Positions 2,440 through 41,576 of a stretch of DNA of 54,236 nt are shown piece after piece. A program made the position numbers and the translations under genes. Numbering within the stretch: the first letter of the stretch is position 1; every line of letters begins with the position of its first letter. Source of the DNA: Chromera velia. Taxonomy: Eukaryota. A model generated the notes under the pieces. That model did no database searches, was not told where the DNA came from, and saw only the letters and a program-made list of their open reading frames with translations. The DNA is taken from assembly GCA_018398765.1 (NCBI GenBank), contig JAHBMJ010000195.1, positions 1 to 54,236 on the forward strand, read 5' to 3'.

Positions 2440-3640
2440 TAACAAAATGGGAGGCCCAGAAGAAAAGAGGCCGACCCGCATCGTCCTCTGCATTCACATC
2501 GATGCCGCGAGACAGGAGTGCTCATGCTATCTGCACCTGGTTGCTCTCGTACCATGGCAGACGGTCTGTCGGCCAAGGCTGTGCACACAGCAGGTGAAGC
2601 ACGGAGGCTTCTTGCAAGTTTACTGTGTGGCACGTTGGCACCGTTGTTAAGGAGATAGTTAACGATGGGTGGTGCTGTGTACTACACAGCCAGGTGGAGG
2701 GGAGTGGTGCCATCTGAAGCGACGGCATTCACATCCGCCCCAGCCTCGACCAAAGCTTACGCAATGTCGAGATCGGGCTCCGTCATCTTGTTGTGGGTGT
2801 TGATCCGTACGAATTCATTGTCGAATGACTCGAATCCGTGTCCGATCTGATGGAGGGGCGTGAGCCCCTGCACGCTCCGGTCACGTCTCCAGAGGAAGTG
2901 GCCGTATTTGTGTGCATTCTACTGATTCACATCAGCACCACGCGAGATGAGGAGACGCACGACCTCGTGCTGGTTTCTCCTGACGGCGTAAGTCAGTTCA
3001 GACTTACCGTTTTCATCGAGAGCATCTCTGTTAAGACCGTGGTCAAGAAAGAACTCAACCAGGTCAACAGAGCCCCAGTAGGATGCGTAATGAAGCAGCG
3101 GCTCTCCGCCCTCTTCCACATGGTGGACGTACGCCCCTTAAGAGACACGCCCCTTGAGAGACAAAGAAGCGTACCGTGTCAACAATGTCACGAATCTCTT
3201 GAGGAGAATGCCGTTCCCTGCTCCCGTAGCATAAACTTCACAAAAGCGTCATCCCCTACACCTGAGGCCTCTCTGCACCCTCGAGCACAAAGAGTGTCAC
3301 CATTCCCCACTGCTTTTTTCTTGCGGCGAATACCACTAACTGCTCAAACCACTTCACGCCTGCACGCACCAGGACTCTGGCTACATCTAGATTCTTCTTG
3401 GAGACAGCCCGCCATAGTGACTTAGTGGCCACTTTTGCCCCCGCACTCACGAAAATATTCACAGCCTCTAGATTCTCAGTCGAGACCGCGCGCTCTAGCG
3501 CTGCCTCCTTCTCTTCATTAAGCCCAGAGGACACAGCATCCACATCGGCACCGGCCTCCAACAACATTTTCAGCGTGGTGCTGTTCTTCAGAGAGTCTGA
3601 CCGGGTAAAGGCAGTCTTGCTGGTCTAAATCTCCTGCTGC
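2440..3640 (-). pseudogene. Ankyrin-repeat protein pseudogene (boundaries approximate)
   Basis: Ankyrin motifs LLEAGADVDA, LLHYASYWGSVDLVEFFLDHG, LLISRGADVN and ALVEAGADVNAVASDGTTPLHLAV, interrupted by in-frame TAA/TAG stops and frameshifts. Confidence 0.85.
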
Positions 3641-4677: not shown

Positions 4678-4997
4678 CGTCAGATTTCCTCCTAGACTAA
4701 GAACGTAGTCTAGTTGGAGATTTATCATACCTTACCTCCTTAAGTCTGTCAGTCAGAGTTCATTTCTAAGGACTCCATTCAAGCGATACCGGTGGACGAA
4801 GACTGTACGGCATGCTTCTATTTCTTTCTGTATTGCAAGTCTACTATTTTTTTCTCTGTATTGTCAGTCTGTCACTTAATTCTCTTAGTGCACTTAATTA
4901 ATGCCGGCCAGGCTTAGTATTGCGAAGTTAGTTTCCCAATCCCAGTTCTAGCAAGTTTGGTGGGTGATCAAGTCGCCGTACAGGCCACAACGTAACG
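4678..4997 (-). repeat. 3' LTR (320 bp)
   Basis: ~95% identical to 10109-10428. On the + strand it starts CGTCAG and ends GTAACG. Confidence 0.97.
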
Positions 4998-4999
4998 TG

Positions 5000-5013
5000 C
5001 CCTCTCCTCCCCC
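5000..5013 (-). other. Polypurine tract GGGGGAGGAGAGGG
   Basis: Purine run on the minus strand 2 nt before the 3' LTR. Confidence 0.9.
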
Positions 5014-5031
5014 ATGGCCTGTGCACCTCAC

Positions 5032-8000
5032 TTAGGCCGAAGCATAGAAATTGACAATCGCTTGTTTTGTATTCTTCAATGACGACAGGGGCTCCCATGA
5101 TGCGTCTTCCAATGGATATCCCCTCCAGAGAACCTTGTACTGCTTGGTCTTGCCCCTCCCTCGGACTACAAGGATTTTCTCGACTTCATACTCCTCCTCG
5201 GCCCAAGCGAGCATGCGGACAGACGGGGGGCGAGTCTCCCTACTCTGCTGACGGTAAGGCTTGCACAACGATATGTGAATGATAGGGTGCTTCCTGCTCT
5301 CAGCAGGCAAAACAACCTCCAGATTGTTTCAAGGCAGAATGGTCTCGACTTCGAATGGACCGAACCAAACTGAATCAAGCTTCCTAACATATTCCTCTCC
5401 CTTCCCCATAGGACGTGGCCACCATGTGCGGTGCACCAGGATGTAATCTCTTACTTGGATGTTTTCGGCGGGATGCCGACGGCGATTGGCGTTTCGGGTC
5501 ATGACTTGTTGGGCTGAGCGGAGTAAATCTCTCACTGCAGCGATCATCTGGCTGTACTCCTCCAGATATTCCCCTGTGTTGAAAGAAGGTTCGACTGAGA
5601 CTGGGAGATTGAGAGTAGGGGGGATAAGCGGGGACTTCCCACCATCAAGAGTGAGGGGTGCAAAACCAGTCCCCTCATAGACAGAGGAGTTGTATGCAAA
5701 CTTCACATCATACAGAAATTCAGACCACCGGGAGTGCTTCGTGTCTACCAGACACCATAAAGCCTCCTCAAGGGTGCGATTCATTCTCTCTGCGGCACCT
5801 GCTATATCGTGGTGCAATGCAGTCGCGAAATCGACTTCTGAACCGCTGGAGGCATGGAAGGTCTGCCAAAAGCGGGCGACAAAACGGGGGTCACGGTCGC
5901 AGACGATATGACGCTGGAAGCCTTTCTTGCATGAAACGTGCTGGCGGTAGATTTGCGCGGTCTCCTCTGCTCCTGCTGTACTGTGAGTGGGAATCAAGAC
6001 GACTGCCTTGATGAGCCGGCAAAGCACCATAAGAATCGCATCAAACCCCTCATCACTGGAAGGCGGCAAGTCAGTAAGGCGGTCAATGCAAATCGACTCC
6101 CAAGGGCATGAAAGGATAGAGAGGGGCTGCAGAAGCCCGAGGCGGGCCGCAGTGGGACTCTTGCTTCTCTGACACCGATCGCACGCACGAACAAAAGAAG
6201 CGACTGACCTCCACATCTTGGGCCAGTAGTACAATGACGCCACCTTCCGATAGGTCTTCCCCATCTCAAAGTGAGCAGCGTGCAGAGGGGAGTGCACCCC
6301 AGCCATCACAGTCCCCTGCTGAGATTTAGGGACATAGAGACGATTCCTCTCAAAATACAGGAGACCGGCGTGAAGCGACATGCCTCGCAAACGAAGGGCA
6401 AAATTAGGGGTGGGGGCGGGTGGGTACTGCTGTGACAGATGCTGAAGGACAGGGTGGAAGAAGGGATCGGCTGAGTATCCCCTCCTGCAGGAATGCATTC
6501 GTGAAGACCGTCAAACTCTGCAACTCCATCCCTACCCGAGACTGCTGTCCATCTCCCTTCCTAACTGGAGTCTGGCTCTCCTCAATCTCAGGAACCAAAT
6601 CGGGTAGATCAGCGTACTCTGCCCCTAAAGACCCAACGGGCTGGACAGACACTGGGACAGCCTCTGGCAGAGGCCTGGGACGTACAGGCAGACGCTGAGC
6701 GCAACCCATGCGAGAAAGCTTGGCGGAAGACGGTATAAGCTGCCGTGCGGCAGGAAGGTTTCGGGAAAGGGCGTCTGCCACAACGTTTGCTCTCCCTGAG
6801 ATGTACTTTGGAGTGATGCCGAGCTCCTGCATGAACTTAATCCAGTGTCGGACTCACAGGGAGCAAAATTCGAACGATCGGTGGCTAAATTTGTGAGGCT
6901 CTGGTGATCGGTCCATATTTCGGAGTCTGAAGACAGGAAGTGTCTCCATACCTTTACGAAATGCACAATCGCTAGAAATTCCAACTCTCGGACGGGGTAC
7001 TTGGCTTCCGTAGATGTTAGACAGCGGGAGCCGAAAGCAAGGGGGCAGTATCTCCTGGTTGCGCAGTCCTTTTAGAGGGCGACAGCTCTAATAGCTCCTA
7101 CAGACTGCAACACATCAGGTACCAGAATGACTGGCTTGCTGGGATCGGGGAGGGCAAGGGTGGCGTGCTCCTGTACTGCCTTCTTCAGCTCAGCAAACGT
7201 ACGTGACTGTGCAGTCTTCCATTCGAAGGGGACATTCCCCTGGAGGAGGAATGTGAGAGGCCCCACAAGAAACGAGAACCTCGGGACAAACCGGCGGAAC
7301 CAATTGGCCAGTCCCAGAAACTGGTGTAGAGAAGTGCGGTCTGTGGGTTGTGTGAACTCAGTGAGCCCTTGTATTTTCTCATGGCTCGGTCTGACCCCCT
7401 TCCCATCAACCACTAACCCCAAAAATTTCGCCTCTGTCCGAAGCCATGCGCATTTAGAGACCTTAACGTAGAGCTGGTGTTCCCTCAAAAGGGAAAGGAC
7501 TTGGTTGATGTGCTTGATATGCTCCTCCGGAGTGCGGCTAAAAACAAGAACATCATTAATAAACATAACAACACACTTGTTAAGGAGTGGTCTGAGCACA
7601 TCCGTGATGAGACGCATGCTGATAGAAGGTGCGTTACACAAATCAAACGGCATCACCAGCCATTCAAAACTGCCGTACCTTGTGACGAATGCCGTCTTCT
7701 CCTCATCTCTCTCCCTGATCCTTGTCTGATGGAAGTATTGCCGTAAGTCCAGAGACGAGAAAAATTTCGCGCCGTGGAGGCGAATCAGCAGCTCCTCTGG
7801 GTGAGGAATGGGGAATTTGTCGCGGACTGTAATCTTGTTGAGTCCCGTGAAGTCGATGTACATCCGTTGCGTCCTGTCTGCCTTCTGCATAAACAGGACT
7901 GGTACAGTATATGGACTTGTCGAAGGGCAGATGTGCCCTTTCTCGAGGTATGAGTCCAACTGCCGTCTCAGCTCATCAAGCTGACCGTATGACAGTCGGT

Positions 8001-8850
8001 AGGGTGCTCTCGCAGGAGGAGCGTGCCCTGCCTCGAGCTTGATCTCACACTCGATTTTTCGGTGGGGCGGGGGACCCGGAAGCTCGTCTGAGAACCGATC
8101 AAAATATTTTTCGAGAACCGGTCGGACGCTGAGCAGGACCTCTTTGCTCTGGAGGTGCTTTCAGAATCCTGTGTAGGTCGAAGAATTGATGGGATGGTCA
8201 GGAAGGAAAGACGAAAGGGGCGGTGGGTCTCCGGGCTTACCGGCAGACTGTAGGGAATGCACCCCCAACGTATCACTCACCCCCCCCTTCCGCACTGCTT
8301 CGAGGCGGAACAGATACATATGGGAACTGGGTCTCTTCATCAGCCGATGGAGCTCTCTCTGGCTAAAGAAGTCCTCCCCCTCCCCTTCCGCCGGGTACTC
8401 CTCGCTGTCAAACAGGAGTAAGTCTCTCCCGGTTGGCAACTCACACGCGGGGATCGTGAGGGCCTTCTCATGGTAATATAAGATAGGAATGTACTCCTCA
8501 CAGAAGGGTATCCCCAACACAACATCGTAATCATCGTCCAGATCGACTACTGTGAGATCCAGAGGCGTGCTGAAGCCCTGGATACAGAGGGGAAGGCCTT
8601 TGACCTCCTGAGAAATCGGAAGCTACGGTCTCCCGTTCAACCTGCCCTTGCATGCGGTCGGCTCATCGAGATCCCAGAGAGTGAAGCGGTTTGACTCGGC
8701 AACGGAATGGGCAAAGAAGTTCGAATCTGCCCCAGGATCGTACAAACAGCGAACAGGGACCCCTGCCAACCGACCGTGGAAGCGGATGAGCTTCCCCGGT
8801 GCGTGGGAGGTTTTCATAGAGTAGTATCTGCGAAACAGGTAGCCGTTTTG
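5032..8850 (-). pseudogene. pol: pol polyprotein remnant: protease, RT, RNase H, integrase, chromodomain
   Basis: Protease CLYDPGADSNF. RT RDKFPIP..SLDLRQYFHQ..KTAFVTRYGSFEWLVMPF..FINDVLVFS. RH EFLAIVHFVKVWRHFL..TDHQSL and NVVADALSR. IN HSPLHAAH..CDRCQ..CDRDPRF..AERMNRTL. Chromodomain YEVEKIL..YKVLWRGYPLEDASWEP. Broken by stops and frameshifts. Confidence 0.95.
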
Positions 8851-10029
8851 CATGCCTGCATTCTGATTCTGCTGTCGCGACCCCTACAACCCCGGCAGGA
8901 AGTCAGTGACTGGGCGTGCGGCAAGCTGCCACATCTGCTGGTGCTGCATGGGTGAAGGTGCAAGGCCTGAGGGCACCACCAGACCCTGAGGTTGCATGAA
9001 AGGGTTGCTGACCCCCATATGCCTGAAATTCCGATTGTCAGGGCGGGGAGGGGCATTTCGATGCTGCTGTTGTTGCTGCTGAAATGACTGATATGGGAAG
9101 TTTTGGTGCTACTGGGGGAGGAGACGGTTGTTAGACTTTGGGCACCTGTTCGCCCGGTGGCCCTGTTAGTGGCAGCTGAGATATTTGTCTTCTCTGATGT
9201 GCCTCTGCACCTGCTCGTACGACAGCGCATATAGGTGTGACAATCTTTCTATTTTTATTGGTACAGGCCCATCCATGTTGCGCTGTTACACCGTATGCCC
9301 GCCCCCATCGGCGCGCTCGCCTCTGATCAATTGGTCTTCCTCGTCTGCCACTGTCATGACGGCCTCAAGTCCTGTGACTCTCCGACACTAGCCCCGACGC
9401 TTTACAGCGAGACGAATGTCAGTTGGCAATCCCCTGAGGTAGTCGTGTAGCAGGTCGGCTTCTGTGACATCCTCAATTTGCATGGCCTTCTTTATGAAGT
9501 CATCGGTGTACTTTTATACTGTCTTGTTCCCACATTTCATCGCTCAGACTTCCTCTCGCAAACATGTCTGAGCATTTAGGTCTTTGAATTTCTTCCTAAT
9601 CCTCTCTTTGAAATTCTCCCACCCCTGGAACGGCGTTCGAAGGTTTTTAAGCTCGTACCACCTCTGCAGGGGACAGGATAGATACTGATATGCTGCTTCG
9701 CATTTCTCAGCTTCCGATGCTCGCGATAAGCGAAGCCATCTCTCTATCGTACGGAGCCGATCTAGGAGTTGTTTGCGACTGCCTGCGTACGTGAACGGCT
9801 CTTTGGGTTTCAAATTTGACTTCACGACCGCTGGGAGGCTGTTCACCGCGGTGCCCTGTTGTGCTGTCACGACTGTCTACTGGTAGTTGATCAGCTCTTG
9901 GTGCAGCTGTTGATTCTGTTGGGTTAACTGCCCATTTTGGACCTGCAGTGCCTGGATCTCAGCTTACTGCTGCTGTTGAGTTTGAATGAGCTGCTGGATG
10001 AGCTCAGGAGTGATACTGGACAGATCCAT
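8850..10029 (-). pseudogene. gag: gag remnant with coiled-coil N-terminus and degenerate CCHC knuckle
   Basis: ATG 10029: MDLSSITPELIQQLIQTQQQQ*AEIQALQ..NYQ*TVV, then KPKEPFTYAG..WENFKERIRKKF. Knuckle YLSCH*QGHRANRC at 9183-9142. Confidence 0.85.
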
Positions 10030-10090
10030 CCTGCCCGCACGTCAAACAACGGTTGAGAGGCAGAGCAGGGTCTCCCTGAGGTGGAGGACC

Positions 10091-10108
10091 GGGGCTCTCC
10101 TGCTACCA
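10091..10108 (-). other. Primer binding site TGGTAGCAGGAGAGCCCC (tRNA-Met-like)
   Basis: TGG-starting sequence directly abutting the 5' LTR. TGGTAGCAG resembles the complement of initiator tRNA-Met 3' ends. Confidence 0.75.
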
Positions 10109-10428
10109 CGTCAGATTTCCTCCTAGACTAAGAATGTAGTCTAGTTGGAGACTTATCATACCTTACCTCCTTAAGTCTGTCAGTCAGAGTTCACTTCCAA
10201 GGACTCCATTCAAGCGATACCAGTGGACGAAGACTGTATGGCATGCTTCTATTTATTTCTGTATTGCAAGTCTATTATTTTTTTCTCTGTATTGTCAGTC
10301 TATCACTTAATTCTCTTAATGCACTTAATTAATGCCAGCCAGGCTTAGTATTGTGAAGTTAGTTTCCCAATCCCAGTTCTAGCAAGTTTGGCGGGTAATC
10401 AAGTCGCCGTACAAGCCACAATGTAACG
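10109..10428 (-). repeat. 5' LTR (320 bp)
   Basis: Direct repeat of 4678-4997. Confidence 0.97.
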
Positions 10429-10992: not shown

Positions 10993-11069
10993 GGGGGGGG
11001 TCCGGCGCGGCGTGCGTCAATCGTGCAGTTCTCATTTTTCTTGCTTTCCGGGGCCGTTCGCAAGCTTGC

Positions 11070-11135
11070 TTGCGTCAGAATCTTGCGTCAGATGCATGAA
11101 TGGATGCCATGCATGAATGCATGCATGCGTCTGAC
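11070..11135. promoter_or_regulatory. Putative promoter motif cluster (GCGTCAGA, TGCATG repeats)
   Basis: Two GCGTCAGA and several TGCATG(CA) copies ~250 bp upstream of the 11350 ATG. TGCATGCA is a known ApiAP2-bound motif in apicomplexans. Confidence 0.4.
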
Positions 11136-11349
11136 CTTCGTGCAATTAATGATCGCGATCGAGGGCCGGCTGGATTTCTGACCTGATTCCTGAATGAGTC
11201 CCACAGTGGCAAATACCCGTCGTCAGGCTGTCAGTCAGATTCACTTACGCGAGTGTGGGTCCGCTAGTTATCGTCCATCGCGAAACTTTTCGGAGCCGTA
11301 TGAAGGGAATTACATATATGACACTCGACAAGTCTCCTTTTCTTTGAGC

Positions 11350-11988
11350 ATGCCTGGAAGATCCTCCTCCGCGGTTACCGCCAACGGTGCAAACGCAAAG
11401 AAGACCAAGAAAGAGGCGCACAACCCCCCTCCGGAGAGCAAGAAGACCTCTGCTGCCCATGCAAAGAAGAAACCCGACTCCGCCAGGGCCAGTGGCACGA
11501 ACCTCAAGAAGATGACGCTGAAGGACGCAATCGCACATTTCTTGGGCACACAGACAGACGTGGTGGGACTTGCCACGATCAAGAAAGCCATGAGTGACAC
11601 GTACGGGTTCGCTGCGGGAAGCGCTTTCAACAAGCGCCTCGCAAAGACGCTCACCGAAATGGTGGACTCGGAGACGATCGGAAAGAATCGTGGAAGTTAT
11701 CACGCAGGGAAGGATTCTGTTGCGGGGATCAACATAGCACTGCGTGAGGAAAAGAGGGCGGAAGCGGAGAGACGGGAAGCAGCTGGAGACATCAAATGTC
11801 CCTTCTGCGAGCGGTGGTGTTCAGGCCTCACCTGCTTCGTTGGAGAGGACAGCATTGCCCGTGGGGGGGAGTATCGGTGTGAGCACGCTGGCTGCAGGAA
11901 GACCCTCTGGACCTGGATCTCTGACGGCTACACGATCGGACGCCCAGTCGAGTACAAGGTCGCGTACAAGGGGCTTTACAAAAACTAG
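11350..11988 (+). CDS. Intronless 212-aa protein: Lys-rich N-tail, linker histone H1/H15-like winged helix, C-terminal Cys4 Zn-ribbon-like domain
   Basis: Clean ORF. DAIAHFLG..GLATIKKAMSDTYG..AFNKRLAKTLTEMVDSETIGKNRGSYH follows the H15 pattern (AI..SL.AIKK....Y...F...L..AL..LV..G.....GSY/F). CPFC..CEHAGC at the C-terminus. Confidence 0.75.
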   Translation: MPGRSSSAVTANGANAKKTKKEAHNPPPESKKTSAAHAKKKPDSARASGTNLKKMTLKDAIAHFLGTQTDVVGLATIKKAMSDTYGFAAGSAFNKRLAKTLTEMVDSETIGKNRGSYHAGKDSVAGINIALREEKRAEAERREAAGDIKCPFCERWCSGLTCFVGEDSIARGGEYRCEHAGCRKTLWTWISDGYTIGRPVEYKVAYKGLYKN

Positions 11989-12677
11989 ATAGGGGGCAGG
12001 CAGGGTGACTCTGCAAGCTGGCAAGTGCACCTTAATTGTCCCACAGGTTGGAGCCCCGTCATTGTTAGACCTGTTGCAAAAAGAGCCCAATGTAGAGGTT
12101 CTCTGAAAGCCGTAAAGCCCGGAAGAGTTGTTCGAAGCCCAAGGGGGAGTGTCTGTTGCCACCCATGCAAGCAATCGCCGACCTTTCAGCCTAGCCTCCG
12201 CCGGCACTCCGGGCACTGTTCTAAGCACTGTCTTATGTTTCCGTTCACTTCTCTCCCAATCCATTCCTCTTTTTTTCAACGATTGCATGCTGCTATCATT
12301 AGTCAGTTTTTTTGTGTCTTTTGCAAAGACTCTTTTTTTAATGCGTACTATAGTTTTATATGTTTTAGGTTTTTTTTTGTACATACCGTCTATGATACTC
12401 ATCATCATGTTTCATCCCCATCGGTCTCTATAGCGCGTCTAGCGTTTGGTGTTAGACAGACTCGGAGTGCGTTTTTTATATAAGAATCATATAAGAAAAT
12501 CTAGAGAACCGTTCTTATTTTCAGTTGTTTTTAACTAGGTTTTTAAACTATTGACTAGACTATTGAATGATGCAACCTTGCTAGCAACCTTGCTGTTGGC
12601 CTTAAGACTGCATAACAATCTAGATAACAACCTTACGCATCGGACGCTAAATCAGCTAGACGTAAGTATAAATTATA

Positions 12678-14186
12678 CTAGGCGACCAATACAAAAAAAA
12701 AACAAAAAAAAATAAGAGCATTTACCCTGTTTAGTTTTTTTTTTTTTTGTTTCTAAACGTGTTCACGCTGACAAAAAAAATCGATTCGGAAGTCAACACC
12801 TAGGTTAAAACTAACATGATTTCACTTAGTCTCTAAGTCAGTCCGAGAGTCAATGACGTATCAAGTCCGAGGTTCTAGCCTAGGTTAAGTCAAAAAACGG
12901 GCAATAATAAATATGCAGAAGAAAGAGAGAGATAAGAGAGACAGCGCGCCCAGTCTAGCAGCCAGTGAAGTACAACAGACACCGCTATTCTTCCCTTCCT
13001 TAAGTCGCTCCCCTACCTGCCCCCCGCCTAGCCCTCCACCCAGATTTGCATCCAAGATGCCGTCATGCCCCTGACCACCCCCAGCCCCTCCTCCTACGCC
13101 TCCCGCTCCGAAAGGTATGAAGGACCAGGGAAGAAAAGACACGCTGGTGAGAAGAATGTGTCGTCTGATTCCTTGCCGACTCTTCGTTACGCTATCATTA
13201 ATATTTATTAATCATTTTTTCTGTAGTTCAATTTTCGTTTCTTTCCTCCTTCTTCATGTCTTAGAGGAGGGGATGAGGGACTTGAAAAAACAAAGAAGCT
13301 AGTGGGGAAGACAACAGAGAATGGTAAGAGAAATGTGTCTCCATGGGCGTCTCTTCGCTTCCTGCTTATGCTCTTTAGGGTTTCCCCTCCAGAGTTAAAC
13401 TCATTTCTCCGAGTTGCCGTCCCTTCCTTTCCAGCCTCTTACTTATCTTTCTCCTAGATCTTTCTTTTGCGTTCTCTTTCTTTGGGGGCAGCGGCCGCGG
13501 CTTTATAGCTAGGAGAGGACTTCTGCATCTTTCCTGAACTCTCTAGAAAAAATTTTTCAGAGGAAGAGAACTTCTAGCAGTGTCAAACTCTCCAGAAGAA
13601 ACATTCTGCTTAAGTAAAGCAATTATGAGCTGCAAACGGCTCAAGAAGAGGAGATAAAGCTTCTGAGATACAACCATTAGTGAGTAGAAAAACACAGGCG
13701 CTTGTAGACGGGAGTTTCGAGCGGTTCTGAATTAGAAATCTGAAGCCTGATCAAATGTCAACCTCTTTTTTGACCTTATGAATTCCAAGGCCGCTGAAAC
13801 GCCTTTCTACCCTTTTGAACGTGAAGGCAGCCTTAAGTAAAGGTGTATAGCAAGACAGATAGCATGGCACGCTAAGCAGCTTGCAGTAGGCTACTAGATC
13901 GAAGCTGGTGTTTGAGGTAAAAAGGCCGTAAGGTCAGATAAACCGCTGCAGGTGTTCGACTGAATTTGAGCGAAGTTGCCGGCTGAAGATGCACGTATAC
14001 AACCGGCCAGTTTGCATGCATGCGCGGCACGCAGCACGCGGGGGTCCTGCGGTGAGGACTCGATCGGGTACCTACGGGCCGCTGGCCAGAGCGTACGACA
14101 TAATCATATATATGCAGAGCTTTCTAAAAAAAAAAAGAAAACCAAAAATGAGATTTTAGCTTTTTTTTTTTGTAGTGGTCGCCTAG
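12678..14186. mobile_element. 1.5-kb TIR element with CTAGG termini and 8-bp TSD
   Basis: TIRs CTAGGCGACCAATACAAAAA / TTTTTGTAGTGGTCGCCTAG. Perfect TSD AAATTATA at 12670-12677 and 14187-14194. Confidence 0.88.
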
Positions 14187-14466
14187 AAATTATATTATAA
14201 AAAATATAAGTTTTTGAAGCTCGGTTTTCACTTGATAAATTTGTAATTGGTTTTATTGATCGATATACAAAACTTAAGGCTAACTGTAGCTGACCCTAGA
14301 GTTGACCGACAATGTATGGACTAGGGTGGAACTCGAAACATAAATCCTAATCCTAAGGTTCATCAACATTCTTTATAAAAAGTATTAAAAACTATATAAA
14401 GAGAAAAAAAATGTGAACACATATGTTATAAACACTTAGGCGGGAGAAAGGACTTAAAGCAACGCC

Positions 14467-14724
14467 CTAAGTATGATTTATAAAGTTATTTTTAAAATAA
14501 AGTCCGACCACAGACTTTAGACTTTAAAACTTCTTTGGTTTTAAAACTTTAAGAATAAAAAGCTTGAACACATTGATATGTTGTTTAGGATTGTTTAGCC
14601 TTTTAAAACATCGGTATGTCAAAAAAAATTTAAAGTGCGTTTCAAAAGTTATATTATAGAGTCCACAGACTCAAACGAGACTTTAAACTTTATTTCACTT
14701 TAAAACTTTACAGATCACACCTAG
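14467..14724. mobile_element. MITE, second copy of the 1366-1695 family
   Basis: Ends CTAAGTATGATTTATAAAGTT / AACTTTACAGATCACACCTAG. TSD GCAACGCC vs GTAACGCC. Confidence 0.8.
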
Positions 14725-15683
14725 GTAACGCCCCATTACCGAGATGTGAAAGCTATTCAAAATTTAACAAGCAGAGACGAGCAGGCTAGGACAGCTTTCC
14801 ATCAAGAATAAATCACTGACTCACTTGAAGGATCATTGAAGATTCCGACAAGTAGATGAATAAAAAGTTGGCTGGAAAGTTGATCTGTGAAGACGGTCCC
14901 TGGGAGAATTCCAATCTATGAGGCTAGCAAGAAAGCGAAAATCTATCGATCGATCGACTCGCTAGCTATCGCATGCTCAAATGAATCGCGCAGCGCAATC
15001 CGTCATTCTACGCGCTGCGGGAACCCCAGAAAGGCAGACAAGAGTCAGTAGTACTGCACTCTTACTGTCATCCTTGGAATATAAGCAGTGACAAGACCGG
15101 CATTGGTGCCTAAAGGAACGGAAAGACCCAGGCAAAGGTGAACAACTGTTGTTTTAGTCTACAACACATTGATTGCAAGAAATGTGCGCAGCATTTCTCA
15201 GTCTGACACAATCGTTTGAATCGCATCGGTGCGCCAATCTTGACGTATGCATGAATACCGCATTGATCGACGGCGCGCCACTTCGACGCGCGTACATGAA
15301 TGCCGCTGCATGACCCGTCACCGCACGCCACACTCGAAAAATCAGGAACTTGAATGTGATGCATTATGATTACAGCAAGGGCTGCAAGGCACTAAAAAGA
15401 TGCCCCATTACGCCCCTTCCCTCCCCCCCCCACATCATTTATTAATAGCATTAATCATCAATCACTTCTGATAAAATTTAATAAAATTATTAGCAATGAT
15501 TCCTAAACAATGATGAAGAATTGAAGATTACATATAATTAAGATTACATGATCAAAGATTCAAAATATGTTAGTCAAAATGAGAAAGAATACCGCACAGA
15601 AAATATTACAAAATCCATATGACGTTAATTGCTTAAACCACTACTACAGCAATCGAGAGCGATCGATCGAATCATGCAGTCGA

Positions 15684-18020
15684 TCAGGACACCCGCCTGA
15701 TGTCAATCCAGCCCTCCGCGACGCCCGGACTCAAGTCAACAGAAAGAGAAAAACCCCCGCCCCCGCCATCTGCCCCCTCCTCTCCCCCCTCGATCAATTG
15801 AATGTCTTCGCCGTCTCTCCCACACTCTGAAGCAAAACTAAACAATTCTGCCGTTCCCAAAGGAACTGCACAAGAAGACCCTCTACCCTCTTTTACAAGG
15901 CCACTCGCACCCTTGTTCCTTCTCTCCCCTAAATTCACACCGTTCACTTCCGCCTGACTCTCTCCCCCCCCATTCTCTCGGAGACTCCCACTCTCCTCAA
16001 ACGCCCCCCCATCAGGACTCTCTGGTGCCTGCTGCTGCCGTCCACTCACTGACAATTCGTATAAACAAACTCGAGGTCGAACAACCGAGGCAGAAGAAGA
16101 GGAAGAGGCCCCCGGAATCAGACGCCCTACCGCGTCTCTCCAGGACGATGACCCCCCCCCGCTCCCCTTTGACACCCCATCTCTGTCCCTTTCACCTGAC
16201 ACACCCACACTCATTGCCTTCCAAATTTGCCTCCCCCCACTCCCCTTTCCCCCAACCGAGTCATCCCCCTCCCCCGCACCGCATGCAGATAGGCACACCG
16301 CGCACACGTGACGCTCCACCCCCTGCCCAGTCACCGTAGCCAACACCCCGACCAAAACGTATTCTACCAAATTGGGGTGCGTGAGGAGCGTTCTCCGGAG
16401 TTTCGGACTGAAGGAAGCGAGAGAAGGGGCTGGAGGCAAATCAGGAAGAGTGTCCGGGGTCCCCCCTAGGCCACCGGCCTGTTCAAAGAAAAGAGCAGAG
16501 GCGTCCCTTATGCGAATGGGAGGGTCCCCCTGTGATGCCGCGACTCCCCCTCCCTTTTTGCCTTTGTCTTTTTCACCAGTCGCACTTGGCGGCACAAGAT
16601 GGATCAACAGGAAAGGTGGAAGGGAAGGAAAGGATGTTCGTGGAAGAAAATTTTCAAGAACGGGCACCTGTGGAAATTCACTCACAGCCAACCCCCAACT
16701 AAACAACAAAACCCACCCGCTAGCGTCTGTGCGGATCCACCTCTGGAGCGAAAAGAGACGGGATATGGGGGACGAGAGGGAACATACGGCCTGGTTGTGC
16801 ACGAGAGAAATCAGTGCACGAAAACCACTGGAAAAGGCGGTCCCCGATACTCCCCCCTTCCCCACACTCCCATAAAGCCGTTCGAACGCCTCCACCCCCC
16901 CCCTATCCTCTGAGCCTGCATGCACAACATTCACACCCTGAGGCGCCTCCAGACCCCAACAAAGTTCTCCGTGCAGAGCGGACAAAAGAGAAAGAAGAAG
17001 CCGAGACTGGCGGGGACCCGTCTTGTTCAGGGAAATCTCTAAGTCGGCCTGCAGCAAAGACGCAAGCAAAGCAAAGCACAGCGCATTTTCATATGTTTTG
17101 ATACATGCAGAAAGTGAAGATGCGTTAACGATCTGAGCGAATATGAGGAAGAAATGGAGATCTGATATATGTGCTGATCATCGCAGCTTTCGCAGCACTC
17201 ACATACCTGCTTTCTTTATCTCGCCTCGGCCTCCTTTTCGGATACACACATACACACACACACACATACACATAGACATACACACACACACACGCCCACA
17301 CAAACCCCTCCCTACCCACCCACCTGCTTGACTGCCGCCTCCGGTGTCGCCACAGTCGCAGCGGAATTCCCAGGGACGGACTGGAGGACCGCAAACGCAA
17401 AGCTCAGCGCATCAGCAGACGACGAAGACGAACTAGACGCTTCCCAAATAACAGAAGAAGACGAAGAGGAAGAATCTGCCCCCCCTCCCCCTGGCGTTAC
17501 TGACAACAACCCCCCACCCCCACTGGAAGAAGAAGACGAAGAGGAAGAGGAAGCCCCCCCTCCCCCTCCCCCAGGCGACCCGCTGTAGCTGTACGGTTTT
17601 GCATCTTGGAGGAGTCGGGCCAGCGACAGGTGGGTCTTGCGGCTTCTGGTCGCCTCCGTCCCGTCAGGCACTGCGCTCGTTTGGCTGATTAAATTCAGCA
17701 CCGGCAGAGGCTCTAAGGGGGGGAGGGGGCCGAAGAAACTCAAAGGTCTGAGTGCGAGGGGGCATCTGAGGAGAAGCCAGAGGGCGGCGGAGAGCACGGA
17801 GGCAAAGCTGGGAGGGACGCTGGGAGTGCGGAGGTCCACTGGAAGAAGAAATCGAAGAGGACGGCCCAGAGGACGCACACTCAGCTTGGAAGCGACGTCC
17901 TGCACGCACAGGCAGGCAGGCAGAGCGAACACGACAGAGGAAGCAATGAATGTACAAACAAGACAGACAGAAAGAAGATGGAGAGAGGCGCAGACAGAGG
18001 GTGGGGTCTCTTTCTTGAAG

Positions 18021-29968: not shown

Positions 29969-32433
29969 ATGCAGTCTCTTCTTCTACTCCCGGCTTTTGC
30001 TGTTTGCCTTCTTTTAGGTTGGCCGTCTCCGTCTCTTGCCTCTCGGGGCTCTGAGACGGCGGGTGGGGGGCCTCTCGAAAGATTTCCTCCCAAGGTCCAG
30101 TTCTTTTGGACGGACATCGACCATTTCAATTTCGTCTCCAAGGTCAGAGACAGCTTCTGGTGCCTCACCTGTCCATGAGCTCATTTTCTTTCCTCTTTCC
30201 TTTCTCCAGTCGCTGCCGTCTCCGCCTTCACATCAAGATTTCCTTTCTGCCTGTCTTGTCATCTTTTCCTCCTGAGCCCCTCTCTGCAATTTGCTACACC
30301 CTCCTCTGCTCACCCTTTTCTGACCCTTCGGAGGAGAAAACAGCTTTCTGTTTTCTCTTTCCGAGGTGCCTCTACGAGTTCATTCGGAGTGAAAAATAAG
30401 TCTCCGTCTCCGTGCACTACCTGGTGTCTCGTCGTGCATCTTCACTGTAGCTCTGCTCTGAATTCCTTCTTTTTCTCCACGTTGTCATCTACTCTCCCAC
30501 ACCCCTCCCTCCCTTTCCCTGTTTCTTTTCTTTCCTTCCGCCTCTTTCTCTCTCTCTCCCCTCCATCTCCCCCTTTGACCCGCCCTTGCTTCCCTCAACC
30601 CCTCCCTCCCACCCTCTGTGTGTGTGTGTACGTGAGTGTGAGTACAAGTGTCTACACCGATGCTGGCTGTGTGCATAATGATGGCACATCCCCGTCTCGT
30701 CTCTTTGGCCTACACTGAAATGAACTGTCAGCAGAGTCCCGCCCAGAAGTTTGCCGTGAAAGTGCTGACGTACGATGGCTTCTACAACCGTCTCCCCGAG
30801 TCCCCCCTCTTGGTCTATTTGGGCAACGAGGGGGTGATCGAGAGTTTCTACAACAATACCGGGGCAATGTTCGAGATAGCAGAGGAAATGGGGGCGCTGG
30901 TTGTCTTCATCGAACATAGGTGGGTCTTGGTCTCTTCCCCGTTCCTCCTTTGTCTGTCTCTGGTTCTTTTTTCTGTCGTTTCCCCCTCCCTCCCTCCTCT
31001 TTGATGTCCTGCCGTACGCTCTATTCTGCTGTGAAACATCTCCACAACTCTATTCTTTTTTTTCTGAGAGAGCTGCGGTCTTCTTGAAAGACGACTCGAG
31101 TGAGTAAATTGGGACTTGAAGTCTGGAAATCGTTCTTTTTTTCCCCTCTTATTTTCTTGCTTCGCTTTTCTTCTTCCCCTTTTTTGCTGCGAATGTCTAA
31201 AAATGTTCCCGAAGCAACACACCCTTGGGAGCCCATGTATGCGTGTCTCTAAATGTGTTTGTGGATGTTTTTCATACGCATGAGATCTATATATCGATAT
31301 GATAATAAATGAATTGCAAGTCTGCATGCAGGTATTACGGTAACGGCACCTCCCTTCCTTGGGGGGGGAATTCTTTCACCGAAGAGCACTTGGCCTTCCT
31401 CACTGTCGAACAGGCAATGGGGGATTTTGCGGAGGTGCTCTCTCAGATGCGCACAGATCTGGAATGCACGGGGGCCAAGGCATGTCCCACTATTCTGTTT
31501 GGAGGCTCTTACGGTGCCATGCTTGTCGTGTGGTTTCGGCAGAAATACCCACACCTCTCTGTGGGGGGTGTTGCTGCATCTGCCCCTGTGAACACTTTTG
31601 CTGATGATTTGGATCTTGGGGCTCTGTTTTGGAATGCTTCCCTGTCTGTGTTCGGGTCTGAGGGTAAGATTGTGGGGTGGCCTCAGTGTGAGCAGACTGT
31701 GAAGAAGGGAATGGATGAGATACAGAAAAAGTCGTTGCGGCAGCTTTCAGGCACATTCCCTGTCTGCAAGAAGATGGAGACCGAGACGGACAGACTGCGT
31801 CTGGAGGCGTATGTGCGGGGTGCGCTGTCGACTCTGGCGATGAGTGACTACTCAGTTCAGGCAGACCTGATGCAGCCCCTGCCTCCCTTTCCTGTCAGAG
31901 AGGCCTGCAAAAGGATGCGGCAGCATGTGCGCAAAGGGAAAGGTTCGTCTCCCCTCCTGAAGGATCTGGTTGGAGCAGTGAACCTGATGGTGAACAGCAC
32001 GGAGAAGCTGGAGTGCTGGGATTTGGGAAGAGAGTTGATTGAAGAAGAAGGAGGGAGAGAAAGAGGGAATGCAGGAGAGGACTTCTCTGGGAATTTCCCG
32101 CCGTCTCTCTCTATGGGGGGCAATTCTCTTGGAGACATCTGGAAGGTCTGGTCTTTTCAGGTAATTGGGAGGGGGGGGTCTTTTCAGGTAACTAAGCGTC
32201 TGTGGTGGGGGCGGGGAGGGATGCATTAGTTTTGTCGAGCAGACAGACTTGCATGAATGCATGCGGACTTCGAGTGTACGCTCTTTTTTTTGTTCAGCAG
32301 AGAGTGTTAACAAGAAGAAGAAAGCTGCATTGGTTGTTATCCGAAAGAAAGAAAGATGCGGTCTTCTATTGATTCTCGACATTTCGATCAGGGCAACGGG
32401 TCAGATACACACACTGGCATCAATAGACAGAAA

Positions 32434-32471
<38 letters not shown>

Positions 32472-32496
32472 CACGGATACACTGTATGCTGCTTGA

Positions 32497-32538
<42 letters not shown>

Positions 32539-32583
32539 TGTGTGTCTGTCTGTCTGTCTGTCTGTGTCTGTCTGTCTATGTGT

Positions 32584-32615
<32 letters not shown>

Positions 32616-33115
32616 AGGTCTGCACAGAGCTCCCCATGCAGCCTCTGACTTCTGAGGATTTCGGCTTCCTCATTCCCTTCTCTGAGGACCATTCCCGCGC
32701 CCTGAAGGCCGCATGTGCCCGTCTGTTCCCCCACACCAAGTGGAGGCCGTTGTGGATGCGCACAGCCACGGGAGGCGACTCTCTGGGTTCCGTGTCGAAT
32801 CTCATCTTCAGCGATGGAGCCAAGGACCCCTGGGGGGCGGGGGGTCCGAACAGGGCGTGCTACGAGAGAATCGTTCAGGGAAAGTCCACAGAAGGCTGCG
32901 AGGAGATGAAGCCCCAAACGGGGTCTCCTCAGAGCTTTGCACTCCACCCCTCAGCTGTGCGTTTGTTCATCAGAGACGGCGCGCACCACGCAGACCTGCG
33001 CGCATCCGACCCGAATGACAGTGAGGAACTCCGGAGAGCGCGAAGGAAGGAGAGGGAGGTGATGAGGAAGTGGATTGACGAGGCATTGGGGAAAGAGGTT
33101 TTGAATGTCGCATGA
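29969..33115 (+). CDS. Serine peptidase family S28 (lysosomal Pro-X carboxypeptidase / DPP-II like), 4 exons: 29969-30142, 30732(or 30735)-30919, 31332-32160, 32618-33115
   Basis: Signal peptide. Motifs [36 protein letters not shown] (catalytic Ser), WFRQKYP, ASAPV, FQVCTE, DPW (Asp) and GAHHADL (His). Splice phases are consistent. Confidence 0.95.
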
Positions 33116-33604
33116 GGGGATCGATCGAGGCCGGGAGGATTGTCACTAAGTCGGTCGATCGAGCCTGATAATTTTAGCCTTCGATGATGCAGGTTACAGG
33201 TTGCAGGCTATCAATGGGTCCGCCTGTTCTTCTTTCATTTAATTAGACTTTTTGTCGTGCTTCTCGTATCACTGCCAAGACCTGATCATCCACCTTCTAA
33301 ATGATTTATTTACAATATGCTAATCTGATTCACTAAAGAAAAAAATGTAGAAGAAACACCTTTTTAAATCCAGTTTTTAATTGTATAAACTAAGTTAAAC
33401 TCTAGCTTAAACCTTAGAAAGAAGACTTACTAAATAGACTTATCATAAATAAATTTTCATTGAAAAAGTTTTTAAATTATTGTTAATTGCTAGATTTATA
33501 ATATTGGTTGCATTGTCTGTAGGATATCATAGTACATTCAATAATTTGTCTAGTATAGTGTATACATTAGCATAGTATACATGCTAGTATACATGCATGG
33601 TTTA

Positions 33605-36758: not shown

Positions 36759-37959
36759 CAGGGTTGCTTTTCTAGTCGGTAACAGGTCTAGTCTACCGGC
36801 AATTGCCGGTAACTGGTAATCGCCTCAGTCTGCCTTCCTTTTTCCGACAAAAAAAATGATAAAAATTAGGGTCCCAAAAAAAAAATTTCACCTGCGGCGC
36901 CAACCTTCAAAAACATATTTTTAAGTGTTTATTGGCATTTGAAAAGCCTATTCACACACAAAAAAAAATTAAAAAAATATTTAAAAAATATAAATTTTTA
37001 ACTGCTTCACGGTAGCCTTCACTCCTATAAGTAGCAAAAAGTTCCAACAGCTCTAGAGTTTCTCTGAAGTGCTCTGGCCCACTTTTTTTTTAGTCCAGCC
37101 TATCATACTACAAGAGAAAGAGAGAGAAAGAGAGAGAGAATAAAAGAGAGTCGCTCTCCCTACCACAGGACCAAACAGTTTCCGTTCATGCTATTGCTTT
37201 CCTTATCTCTGTTTGCTTATATGTACAGGCCCAAATTGCCACCCAATCGACTTAATTATAATTAATATACACAAAGGTCCACTCGCCTTTCGCTCCTGTA
37301 CTCGCTCTCCCTGTCTCTGTCTGCTCATACATAAACCCAATTGCCTTTCATTCACATACTTGCCCTCCCTGTCTCTACAAACACCCAACCGCCTTTCGTT
37401 CCCTGTCTCTGTTCGCTTATTTACTTATAATTCTTTCATGTCTGCTTGCTTGCAGATGGCAAATCTTCACCCCCCTGGGTCTCCGGAGTCAGAGGCCCTT
37501 CGAGGCCTCAGATATCAGCTTTTAGCGGCGGGTCTTTCTTTGGAGGCTGGAGCACTAGATTGGGAGGACCACCCAAACTTTGAGGCGGACTCAGAGTCTT
37601 TCCGTTGTTGGAATCGCGCGGATGCATCTGTCTGGGCCAGCTGTGGTCATTGCGGCCAGCGGTTTTCTGTTTTTGGGCGCCAAGTGCAAGACGGGACCCA
37701 TTGCTTCGACCTGCGGCATCTTCAAGCACATTGGCCGCATAGCTGTCCCTACAGATGACGCATTGACTTTTTGAATTAACCTTAAGTCTAGCCTTAAGTG
37801 ATTGATTGATTGACCTATAACCTAGGACTTAGATTATTGAAAAGTGTTAGTGACTATTAGAATTCTGCCAAGTCTTTGCCAACTGCCAGCAAACTCTGCC
37901 GGTAATTACCAGTTACCGGTAATGAAGCTTGTCTACCGCCGAAAAAATCGGCAACCCTG
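36759..37959 (+). mobile_element. Non-autonomous hAT-type DNA transposon, copy 1
   Basis: TIR CAGGGTTGC/GCAACCCTG. 8-bp TSD ACTTATAC/ACTTGTAC. Subterminal TACCGG/CCGGTAA repeats. Confidence 0.92.
37456..37758 (+). CDS. 100-aa BED-like zinc finger ORF inside the hAT element
   Basis: ATG directly after a TGCAG acceptor. WEDHPNF..ASCGHCGQRF..GTHCFDLRHLQAHWPHSC. Confidence 0.55.
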   Translation: MANLHPPGSPESEALRGLRYQLLAAGLSLEAGALDWEDHPNFEADSESFRCWNRADASVWASCGHCGQRFSVFGRQVQDGTHCFDLRHLQAHWPHSCPYR

Positions 37960-39159
37960 ACTTGTACAGCCGCAGACAGTTGCCACCAACATACACACAC
38001 CCCACACAGCACTCACCCATGCTGGCCTGTCAGGGTAAGGATGGCGGATTCAATCATAAGAACAAAGGGACTCTTAACACCTCTTGAGCAACCACAAATG
38101 ACACAATGATAACCTCTCTATGGCGACCAAGCGACATACTCACATACCTAGTTATCAAACTTGTACAGCCGCAGACAGCTGTCGCCAGCGTACACACACC
38201 CCACACAGCACTTACCCGTGCTAGCCTATCAGGGCAAGGATAACGGGTTCAATCATAAGAAAGAAGGGACTCTTAACCTAGCTCTTAACACCTTTCTAGC
38301 AACCACAAACGACACAATGACAACCTCTCTGTGGCGACCAACCGGCATACTCACATACTTAGTCATCAAGCTTGTACAGCCGCAGACAGCTGCCGCCAGC
38401 GTATACATTCCCTACACAGCACTCACCCGTGCTGGCCTATCAGGGCAAGGATAGCGGGTTCAATCATAAGAAAGAAGGGACTCTTGACACCTCTCCAGCA
38501 ACCACAAACGACACAATGATAACCTCTCTGTGGCGACCAACCGGCATACTCACATACCCAGTCAATGACATCAAACTTGTACAGCCGCAGACAGCTGCCG
38601 CCAGCGTACACACATCCCACACAGCACTTACCCGTGCTGGCCTATCAGGGTAAGGATGGCGGGTTCAATCATAAGAAAGAAGGGACTCTTAACACCTCTC
38701 CAGCAACCACAAATAACACAATGACAACCTCTCTTTGGTGAGTAACCGACATACTCACATACCTAGTCATCAAACTTGTACAGCCGTAGACAGCTGCCAC
38801 CAGCGTGCACACACCCCACACAGCACTCACCAGTGCTAATGCCGTACGCTCTATTCTGCTGTGAAACATCTCTACAACTCTATTCTTTTTTCTGAGAGAG
38901 CTGCGGTCTTCTTGAAAGACGATTCGAGTGAGTAAATTGGGACTTGAAGTCTGGAAATCGTTCTTTTTTTCCTCTCTTATTTTCTTGCTTCGCTTTTCTT
39001 CTTCCCCTTTTTTGCTGCGAATGTCTAAAAATGTTCCCGAAGCAACACACCCTTGGGAGCCCATGTATGCGTGTCTCTAAATGTGTTTGTGGATGTTTTT
39101 CATATGCATGAGATCTATATATCGATATGATAATAAATGAATTGCAAGTCTGCATGCAG

Positions 39160-40338
39160 GTATTACGGTAACGGCACCTCCCTTCCTTGGGGGGGGAATT
39201 CTTTCACCGAAGAGCACTTGGCCTTCCTCACTGTCGAACAGGCAATGGGAGATTTTGCGGAGGTGCTCTCTCAGATGCGCACAGATCTGGAATGCACGGG
39301 GGCCAAGGCATGTCCCACTATTCTGTTTGGAGGCTCTTACGGTGCCATGCTTGTCGTGTGGTTTCGGCAGAAATACCCACACCTCTCTGTGGGGGGTGTT
39401 GCTGCATCTGCCCCTGTGAACACTTTTGCTGATGATTTGGATCTTGGTGCTCTGTTTTGGAATGCTTCCCTGTCTGTGTTTGGGTCTGAGGGTAAGATTA
39501 TGGGGTGGCCTCAGTGTGAGCAGACTGTGAAGAAGGGAATGGATGAGATACAGAAAAAGTCGTTGCGGCAGCTTTCAGGCATATTCCCTGTCTGCAAGAA
39601 GATGGAGACCGAGACGGACAGACTGCGTCTGGAGGCGTATGTGCGGGGTGCGCTGTCGACTCTAGCGATGAGTGACTACTCAGTTCAGGCAGACCTGATG
39701 CAGCCCCTGCCTCCCTTTCCTATCAGAGAGGCCTGCAAAAAGATGCGGCAGCATGTGCACAAAGGGAAAGGTTCGTCTCCCCTCCTGAAGGATCTGGTTG
39801 GAGCAGTGAACCTGATGGTGAACAGCACGGAGAAGCTGGAGTGCTGGGATTTGGGAAGAGAGTTGATTGAAGAAGAAGGAGGGAGAGAAAGAGGGAATGC
39901 AAGAGAGGACTTCTCTGGGAATTTCCCACCGTCTCTCTCTATGGGGGGCAATTCTCTTGGAGACATCTAGAAGGTCTGGTCTTTTCAGGTAATTGGGAGG
40001 GGGGGGTCTTTTCAGGTAACTAAGCGTCTGTGGTGGGGGCGGGGAGGGATGCATTAGTTTTGTCGAGCAGACAGACTTGCATGAATGCATGCGGACTTCG
40101 AGTGTACGCTCTTTTTTTTGTTCAGCAGAGAGTGTTAACAAGAAGAAGAAAGCTGCATTGGTTATTATCTAAAAGAAAGAAAGATGCGGTCTTCTATTGA
40201 TTCTCAACATTTCAATCAGGGCAACGGGTCAGATACACACACTGGCATCAATAGACAGAAAAGCACACACACACACATACACACACACACACACACATAG
40301 ACAGACAGACAGACAGACACAGACAGACAGACAGACAG

Positions 40339-40381
<43 letters not shown>

Positions 40382-40464
40382 AAGCAGCATACAGTGTATC
40401 CGTAGCACACACACATACATACACACACACACACAGAGTCACGGATACACTGTATGCTGCTTGA

Positions 40465-40501
<37 letters not shown>

Positions 40502-41087
40502 CTGTCTGTCTGTCTGTCTGTGTCTGTCTGTCTGTCTGTCTATGTGTGTGTGTGTGTGTGTGTGTATGTGTGTGTTCTCTTCTTTGCAGGTCTGCACAGA
40601 GCTCCCCATGCAGCCTCTGACTTCTGAGGGTTTCAGCTTCCTCATTTCCTTCTCTGAGGACCATTCCCGCGCCCTGAAGGCCGCATGTGCCCGTCTGTTC
40701 CCCCACATCAAGTGGAGGCCGTTGTGGATGCACACAGCCACGGGAGGCGACTCTCTGGGTTCCGTGTCGAATCTCATCTTCAGCGATAGAGCCAAAGACC
40801 CCTGGGAGGCGGGGGGTCCGAACAGGGCGTGCTACGAGAGAATCGTTCAGGGAAAGTCCACAGAAGGCTGCGAGGAGATGAAGCCCCAAACGGGGTCTCC
40901 TCAGAGCTTTGCACTCCACCCCTCAGCTGTGCGTTTGTTCATCAGAGACGGCGCGCACCACGCAGACCTACGCGCATCCGACCCGAATGACAGTGAGGAA
41001 CTCCGGAGAGTGCGAAGGAAGGAGAGGGAGGTGATGAGGAAGTGGATTGACGAGGCATTGGGGAAAGAGGTTTTGAATGTCGCATGA
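39160..41087 (+). pseudogene. 5'-truncated S28 peptidase pseudogene (exons 3-4 only)
   Basis: No promoter or exons 1-2. TGG>TAG stop at 39968-39970. G>R and G>E changes flank the DPW motif. Confidence 0.93.
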
Positions 41088-41576
41088 GGGGATCGATCGA
41101 GGCCGGGAGGATTGTCACTAAGTTGGTCGATTGAGCCTGATAATTTTAGCCTTCGATAATGCAGGTTACAGGTTGTAGGCTATCAATGGGTCCGCCTGTT
41201 CTTCTTTCATTTAATTAGACTTTTTGTCGTGCTTCTTGTATCACTGCCAAGACCTGATCATCCACCTTCTAAATAATTTATTTACAATATGCTAATCTGA
41301 TTCACTAAAAAAAAAAATGTAGAAGAAACACTTTTTTAAATCCAGTTTTTAATTGTATAAACTAAGTTAAACTCTAGCTTAAACCTTAGAAAGAAGACTT
41401 ACTAAATAGACTTATCATAAATAAATTTTCATTGAAAAAGTTTTTAAATTATTGTTAATTGCTAGATTTATAATATTGGTTGCATTGTCTGTAGGATATC
41501 ATAGTACATTCAATAATTTGTCTAGTATAGTGCATACATTAGTATAGTATACATGCTAGTATACATGCATGGTTTA

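Follow-up and report, generated by a model that had tools for sequence, protein, structure and literature searches.

Is a protein that pairs the globular fold of linker histone H1 with a cysteine-rich C-terminal domain a linker histone, a different kind of chromatin protein, or a passenger stranded between transposons? The question is raised by a 212-residue protein, hereafter P0001, encoded in a 54,236-nt stretch of the Chromera velia genome (contig JAHBMJ010000195.1, assembly GCA_018398765.1; "the window" below). Canonical H1 is outlined as tripartite, with a long lysine-rich C-terminal tail, in a source by which euglenozoans and alveolates are also said to lack the H1 winged helix (PMC3380720), and the usual account of H1 origin, as presented in PMC9769792, starts from a lysine-rich tail, with the winged helix as a later acquisition.

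The gene, its transcript and its genomic surroundings

The reading frame is intact, running through 212 codons to its stop codon without internal stops (Table 1), and the exact P0001 sequence is present in UniRef, EukProt and MetaClust. Five sequencing runs from two studies, none annotated as RNA, matched part of the window, and their contigs were aligned to positions 11000-16000. In a neighbouring S28 peptidase gene, contigs X1, X2 and X4 lack 412 nt whose borders form a GT..AG splice joint, which identifies the study that yielded X1-X4 as spliced RNA. Two contigs from this study cover the P0001 gene with neither gaps nor joints (X1, 11224-12298, 1075 nt; X3, 11224-12236, 1015 nt), and we therefore conclude that the gene is transcribed and unspliced. 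X5, which belongs to the second study, has two segments spanning 11582-11995, and X6 falls outside the gene. The intronless structure read from the sequence in the first-pass annotation is thus confirmed at the RNA level, along with the expression that it had proposed to check (X1 and X3). Five differences from the coding sequence were listed in the contigs, two of them silent and three altering a residue, namely A11V, R155W (one low-depth contig) and L186F; phenylalanine is the most frequent family residue at position 186 (34 of 46 rows). The transcribed leader contains a short upstream open reading frame which may control translation. A 5'-UTR intron suspected by eye (GT at 11298 to an AG before the ATG) is not supported, as the contigs contain no such joint. 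No second copy of the gene was found within the window.

The gene lies outside both flanking mobile elements, and its description as undamaged between transposons holds. Upstream is a degenerate LTR retrotransposon bounded by 300-nt direct repeats (4678-4977 and 10109-10408, 95% identical), and downstream is a 1.5-kb element with AT-rich flanks and no long open reading frame, likely a non-autonomous DNA transposon. GC3 of the P0001 gene is 0.69, against 0.61-0.72 in the exons of the neighbouring host peptidase, and no A-run that could represent a poly(A) remnant was found between its stop codon and the inverted-repeat element. Elsewhere in the window, a segment of about 8 kb carrying the S28 serine carboxypeptidase gene has recently been duplicated in tandem (30600-33350 and 38600-41100, also 37144-37758 and 45572-46186), with spliced RNA contigs on copy 1 and a large exon frame that stops earlier in copy 2. 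Also present are an ankyrin-repeat coding fragment on the reverse strand (3256-3624) and an AT-rich dispersed repeat (14467-14726 versus 1366-1697, 80-84% identity).

Table 1. Features of the P0001 gene and its flanks (positions within the window).
Feature	Position	Strand	Basis or detail
Degenerate Ty3/gypsy-type LTR retrotransposon	4678-10408	-	RT and integrase domains; several broken frames
Extent of unspliced RNA contigs	11224-12298	+ (inferred from ORF)	Ends are minimum bounds
Upstream ORF, 15 codons, out of frame	11300-11347	+	Second ATG at 11318; ends 3 nt before main ATG
Intact single-exon CDS, 212 aa (P0001)	11350-11988	+	Translation and RNA contigs
K/A/P-rich N-tail, aa 1-53	11350-11508	+	pLDDT about 50
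Predicted H1-globular-domain-type winged helix, short wing, aa 54-121	11509-11712	+	AlphaFold model, structure ranks, Pfam
E/K/R/A-rich long helix, aa 124-144	11719-11781	+	AlphaFold2 model; alignment
Predicted C4 zinc-ribbon-like domain, aa 148-203	11791-11958	+	C150, C153, C177, C182; EDSxARG, W-I-S-D...E-Y
Element with 25-nt inverted repeats	12678-14186	n/a	Repeats 12678-12702 and 14162-14186, 96% identical

Domain architecture and the P0001 family

The N-tail is rich in lysine (19%), alanine (19%) and proline (9%), as the first-pass annotation had it, with a net charge of +9, and likely serves as a nuclear import signal and a non-specific DNA contact. The H1-globular-like segment that had been noted next to it was supported by structural modelling. 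AlphaFold2, run on the 21-row family alignment A2, gave a model of the whole protein (pLDDT 80, pTM 0.60) that includes a beta-rich C-terminal domain and a winged helix with helices at residues 57-67, 74-85 and 91-106 and wing strands at 111-113 and 116-118. When this winged helix was compared to 998 Foldseek-preselected chains using VIA-align, H1 globular domains occupied all of ranks 1-10 (Z 9.4-10.5, rmsd 1.3-3.3), the best being human H1.4 (Z 10.5, rmsd 1.5 over 68 residues, 24% identity). Across 48,161 representative chains, ranks 1-3 likewise went to H1/H5 (Z 10.2, 9.8 and 9.7), with non-H1 winged helices less than 1 Z unit behind and ranks formally tied (Stn1 9.4, ZBP1 Zalpha 9.4, Zur 9.3). 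Despite this narrow margin we assign the fold to the H1 type because the sequence matches to the Pfam linker histone family PF00538 agree: of 52 aligned rows, 25 match PF00538 at E<=0.05 and 3 match the runner-up among winged-helix families. The PF00538 search suggested earlier does recover P0001 itself (E=0.0087, 16.7 bits for the whole protein; E=0.0012, 19.5 bits for the isolated domain), at scores under the gathering cut-off of 22.4 bits that the relatives P0086 (33.7) and P0050 (25.2) exceed. Other searches were less informative. The family profile matched solved H1 structures weakly (GH1, E 0.69 and 0.1), a PDB sequence search with the single protein returned nothing at E<=10, NCBIfam gave no match for P0001, and the ESM Atlas no usable feature match for the whole protein (best for the zinc domain, 0.80). 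A viral structure library contained no match at E<=0.001, the closest being a pithovirus H1-family protein (E 9e-3, rmsd 21). Overall, residues 54-121 are predicted to form a winged helix of the H1 type.

The charged helix that follows measures 21-30 residues in all 21 A2 rows and, by eye, has no clear hydrophobic repeat; it is likely a rigid single-helix spacer. Beyond it, the four cysteines preceding WTWISDGY were correctly recognized in the first-pass annotation, with a central spacing of 23 residues and not about 25 (C150-x2-C153-x23-C177-x4-C182). C177 and C182 are invariant, and C150 and C153 are kept in at least 90% of the 21 rows. Modelled alone, the C-terminal 68 residues are beta-rich (pLDDT 85.6), and the layout predicted for residues 148-203 is that of a C4 zinc ribbon, in which a small beta scaffold bears two cysteine knuckles, with a putative metal. 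None of the 48,161 chains resembled this domain at Z>=5 (best Z 4.1), which is no proof of a new fold; likeness was weak to the NrdR and LysW ribbons (Z 3.2-3.4) and to Tudor-type chains (Z<=3.0 only). Some cysteine-richer family members yielded weak matches to Fe-S families. Profile matches to uL18 and C2H2 fingers were dismissed as noise arising from composition or cysteine spacing.

A single-sequence search recovered three relatives and a first profile 21 proteins including P0001. When all 1.84 billion representatives were scanned with HMMER, 81 cluster representatives matched the family profile, one of which (P0085) is a spurious C2H2 protein. Because the complete architecture is retained in 20 further full-length homologues, the fusion is more than a chance event. 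When the 81 matches were sorted by split profiles, 26 had both the winged helix and the core zinc domain, and 17 combined the winged helix with a divergent C4 pattern. Another 27, many of them fragments, showed the winged helix alone, 7 (six fragments and P0063) showed the core zinc domain alone, and 4 fell into none of these classes. All members that could be named are eukaryotic, and include the oomycetes Aphanomyces and Saprolegnia, the cryptist Goniomonas pacifica, the amoebozoan Vermistella, the euglenids Neometanema and Ploeotia, and the choanoflagellates Didymoeca and Stephanoeca. Sources were obtained for 24 proteins by exact-sequence match, with the non-oomycete names coming from EukProt/MMETSP, mostly transcriptome assemblies in which prey or contaminants are possible. 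In Aphanomyces, consecutive locus tags indicate tandem paralogue pairs (P0006/P0008 and P0005/P0021). Three metagenome loci (L001-L003) lie on eukaryote-like contigs, and the gene is a single open frame in L001 and L002; L003 has a frame break within the winged helix (850-865), either a pseudogene or an assembly error. Viral contigs yielded 16 pattern matches, none of them a relative.

The C-terminal domain thus occurs in other protist lineages and is not restricted to one genome, and of the novel chromatin architecture first proposed, the fusion of winged helix and C4 domain stands while the idea of a lineage oddity does not, since the family spans several eukaryote supergroups. No description of the family was found in the literature searched, which covered few subscription papers, and the domain-architecture tables of bioRxiv 10.1101/2021.11.30.470311 could list the fusion. 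P0001 represents a small, conserved and apparently undescribed family.

Additional domains were identified by Pfam scans of 31 proteins taken singly. P0063 combines zf-PARP (E 2.4e-15) with the zinc domain, P0089 the winged helix with the start of zf-PARP (partial, E 6.7e-4), and SAP is present in P0079, as two domains, and in P0096; the SAP and zf-PARP fusions come from four single-contig environmental proteins. Longer fused forms (458-2000 aa) were absent from 7,992 scored candidates, which is weak evidence. By eye, a ubiquitin-like domain without Pfam support replaces the zinc domain after the winged helix in P0057 and P0064. In P0086, an acidic stretch and a C4 pattern of another type come after the clear PF00538 domain, and this protein is possibly a bridge between the P0001 family and ordinary H1 domains.

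Conservation is concentrated at the C-terminal end. Among the 14 columns invariant across 21 rows, 11 fall in the zinc domain (E166, D167, R171, G172, C177, C182, W189, I190, D192, E201 and Y202) and three in the winged helix (K78, K79 and K99), and mean conservation is 0.86 and 0.76 for the zinc-domain motifs, 0.59 for the winged helix and 0.26, the lowest, for the N-tail. Across 71 winged-helix rows, positions 58, 60, 78, 79, 99, 102 and 112 are lysine or arginine with a frequency of 70-97%, P0001 itself lacking the basic residue at 60 and 102, and the winged helix is weakly basic overall (net -2 to +9 across A2). The 43 full-length rows span net charges from -14 to +20, with a median of +4, and contain about 12% lysine; 33 of these rows open with a dibasic N-terminus, and the N-tails of several members contain acidic runs. 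P0001 has a net charge of +14, and its C-terminal half, consisting of the charged helix and C4 domain (net -2 and +3), has no lysine-rich tail.

Possible roles and evolutionary history

P0001 is not a canonical linker histone, because it lacks the lysine-rich C-tail and the median net charge of its family is only +4. We instead favor, with a probability of about 0.5, a role for the P0001 family as an adaptor that docks on nucleosomes or linker DNA and binds a partner through its conserved acidic-aromatic zinc domain. This reading is preferred because of the H1-type fold ranks, the conserved basic residues, the dibasic N-termini, the zinc-domain motifs as the best-conserved part of the protein, the DNA-binding nature of the fusion partners, and the precedent of MORF WH2. 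It is weakened by the formal tie with non-H1 winged helices, the Pfam score of P0001 below the cut-off, the weak profile matches to solved H1, the missing basic residues at 60 and 102, the weakly basic winged helix, the low Z of Tudor-type matches to the zinc domain, and the origin of the SAP and zf-PARP fusions in four single-contig environmental proteins. The basic N-tail would bring the protein to the nucleus and add DNA affinity, and the predicted winged helix may then contact, through its conserved lysines, the nucleosome entry/exit or linker DNA, as H1 and MORF WH2 do. The charged helix is predicted to keep the C-terminal domain about 30 A away, where E166, D167, R171, W189, D192, E201 and Y202 could form a putative partner site. 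The partner would most plausibly be a basic peptide, for instance a neighbouring histone tail, and the outcome would be chromatin that is marked or regulated rather than condensed.

Several other roles were considered. The family could act in DNA damage response or genome maintenance: linker DNA that is open or broken would be read by the winged helix, and a repair partner or poly(ADP-ribose) would be bound by the zinc domain. Each module is found separately with a PARP-type zinc finger (P0063 and P0089) and SAP domains occur in the family as well; however, zf-PARP is known in only 2 of the 81 matches, 31 of which were scanned singly with Pfam, and neither Pfam nor structure comparisons revealed any PADR1, PBZ or WWE match, which makes this role unlikely. 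P0001 could alternatively be a genuine linker histone with rearranged parts, its basic N-tail standing in for the C-tail and compacting chromatin, but this is somewhat harder to credit. The H1-type fold and the strongly positive charge of P0001 are in keeping with this possibility, and nucleosome binding is reported for an H1 whose N- and C-terminal domains had been exchanged (PMC4613717). The low median charge and lysine content of the full-length rows argue against it, however, as do an N-tail that is the least conserved region and acidic in places and a non-H1 zinc domain that is the most conserved one. We thus classify P0001 as an H1-domain protein, infer its role as a chromatin adaptor, and place it outside linker histone H1 because it has no basic C-tail and scores below the Pfam cut-off.

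LYAR combines zinc fingers with a winged helix, and a LYAR-like, RNA- or ribosome-associated (nucleolar) protein would be another possible identity. Chain CE of the LYAR-80S entry 6zmo matched at Z 8.4, and winged helices can bind RNA or protein; nevertheless, H1 chains rank above it and the fusion partners are DNA-binding modules, leaving this identity improbable. An RNA polymerase accessory factor combining winged helix and zinc ribbon, akin to TFIIE-alpha/TFE or Elf1, is very improbable. TFIIE-alpha is the top Foldseek match of the full model (E 8.3e-3) and ELOF1 provides the top Foldseek matches of the zinc domain (E 1.4), and Pfam Elf1 matches 2 of 21 members (best E 3e-4), with the A4 profile reaching E 0.03-0.05 against Elf1. 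These superpositions are poor, however (TFIIE rmsd 14.7, TM 0.22; ELOF1 rmsd 8.9, TM 0.31, and absent from the rows at Z>=2), and the Elf1 signal reflects cysteine spacing, because the same A4 profile scores generic C2H2 fingers higher. Least probable of all is a recent retrocopy or horizontally acquired passenger without a real role, an idea drawn from the single exon in an intron-rich genome, the two flanking mobile elements and the patchy distribution of the family, and countered by a transcribed, intact frame with all 14 invariant columns, a host-like GC3, the lack of both a poly(A) remnant and a close donor, and a grouping with oomycetes that is not rejected.

The retrocopy raised in the first-pass annotation, and a recent date for the gene transfer also raised there, remain unsupported, the former in view of the missing poly(A) remnant and the single open frames of the L001 and L002 relatives, the latter in view of the absence of close tree neighbours and of viral relatives. 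Family trees do not resolve the base, and P0001 either forms a weak pair with Didymoeca (91/82 and 85/84, unstarred) or stands alone, depending on the tree. In AU tests on 22 chosen rows, with groups picked once the first tree was known, a constraint joining P0001 and the oomycetes was not rejected (p-AU 0.18), one joining the two euglenids was rejected (p 0.0002), and one joining the two choanoflagellates was borderline (p 0.059). The trees separate two subfamilies (split 94/93), each with one euglenid and one choanoflagellate, which fits an old duplication followed by many losses; transfer or contamination may also lie behind the patchy distribution.

These proteins bear on the origin of the H1 globular domain, which is an open question. 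A tail-less H1-type winged helix is found in euglenids, choanoflagellates, oomycetes, a cryptist, an amoebozoan and the Chromera velia genome, tied here to an unclassified and strongly conserved zinc domain. A more far-reaching scenario, possible and still doubtful, would have the family date from close to the last eukaryotic common ancestor, with its two paralogous subfamilies present by then, and would see in it a relic of a time when the H1 globular domain docked on nucleosomes as a free module, paired with a reader domain of its own and independent of the lysine-rich tail; the C-terminal domain would then be a histone-tail or chromatin-mark reader of a new class, lost in animals, fungi and land plants. 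As P0001 is small and easily expressed, the docking and ligand ideas are directly testable.

Comparison with known systems

Among known systems, the closest likeness is to H1/H5 (PF00538; PDB 7k5y, 1hst and 1ust), with an rmsd of 1.3-1.9 A on most H1 chains, up to 24% identity, conserved basic positions in helix 2, helix 3 and the wing, and a basic N-tail of 53 aa. Unlike H1/H5, P0001 has a charged helix and C4 domain in place of the lysine-rich C-tail and falls under the Pfam cut-off, and its family has a low net charge and a shorter wing.

Functionally, the nearest analogy is provided by MOZ/MORF (KAT6A/B), where a winged helix also directly precedes a zinc-binding module, and where WH2 of MORF is described as docking at the nucleosome dyad beside a zinc-finger reader (PMC9908889). 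That module is a double PHD finger within a large acetyltransferase, whereas P0001 has a single C4 domain in a stand-alone protein of about 200 aa, and no PHD match to the zinc domain rose above noise (PHF8 E 4.1; E 0.0098, below generic C2H2 matches). TFIIE-alpha and archaeal TFE share the order of winged helix, helix and C4 zinc ribbon; superposition of the whole model on TFIIE-alpha is poor, in a model where the relative placement of the domains is itself uncertain (pTM 0.60), and the P0001 winged helix is nearer to H1. Pfam TFIIE matched neither P0001 nor the family rows scanned. Elf1/ELOF1 (PF05129) resembles the zinc domain in its CxxC-x20-23-CxxC spacing and weak profile matches, but fits poorly in structure, has other conserved motifs and lacks a winged helix; PF05129 did not match P0001, and P0033 reached 16.9 bits against a cut-off of 29.8. 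Finally, the H1-like proteins of Toxoplasma and trypanosomatids are likewise H1-related proteins of protists, and as portrayed in PMC9769792 they have the basic tail and no globular domain, an arrangement of which the P0001 family is the reverse.
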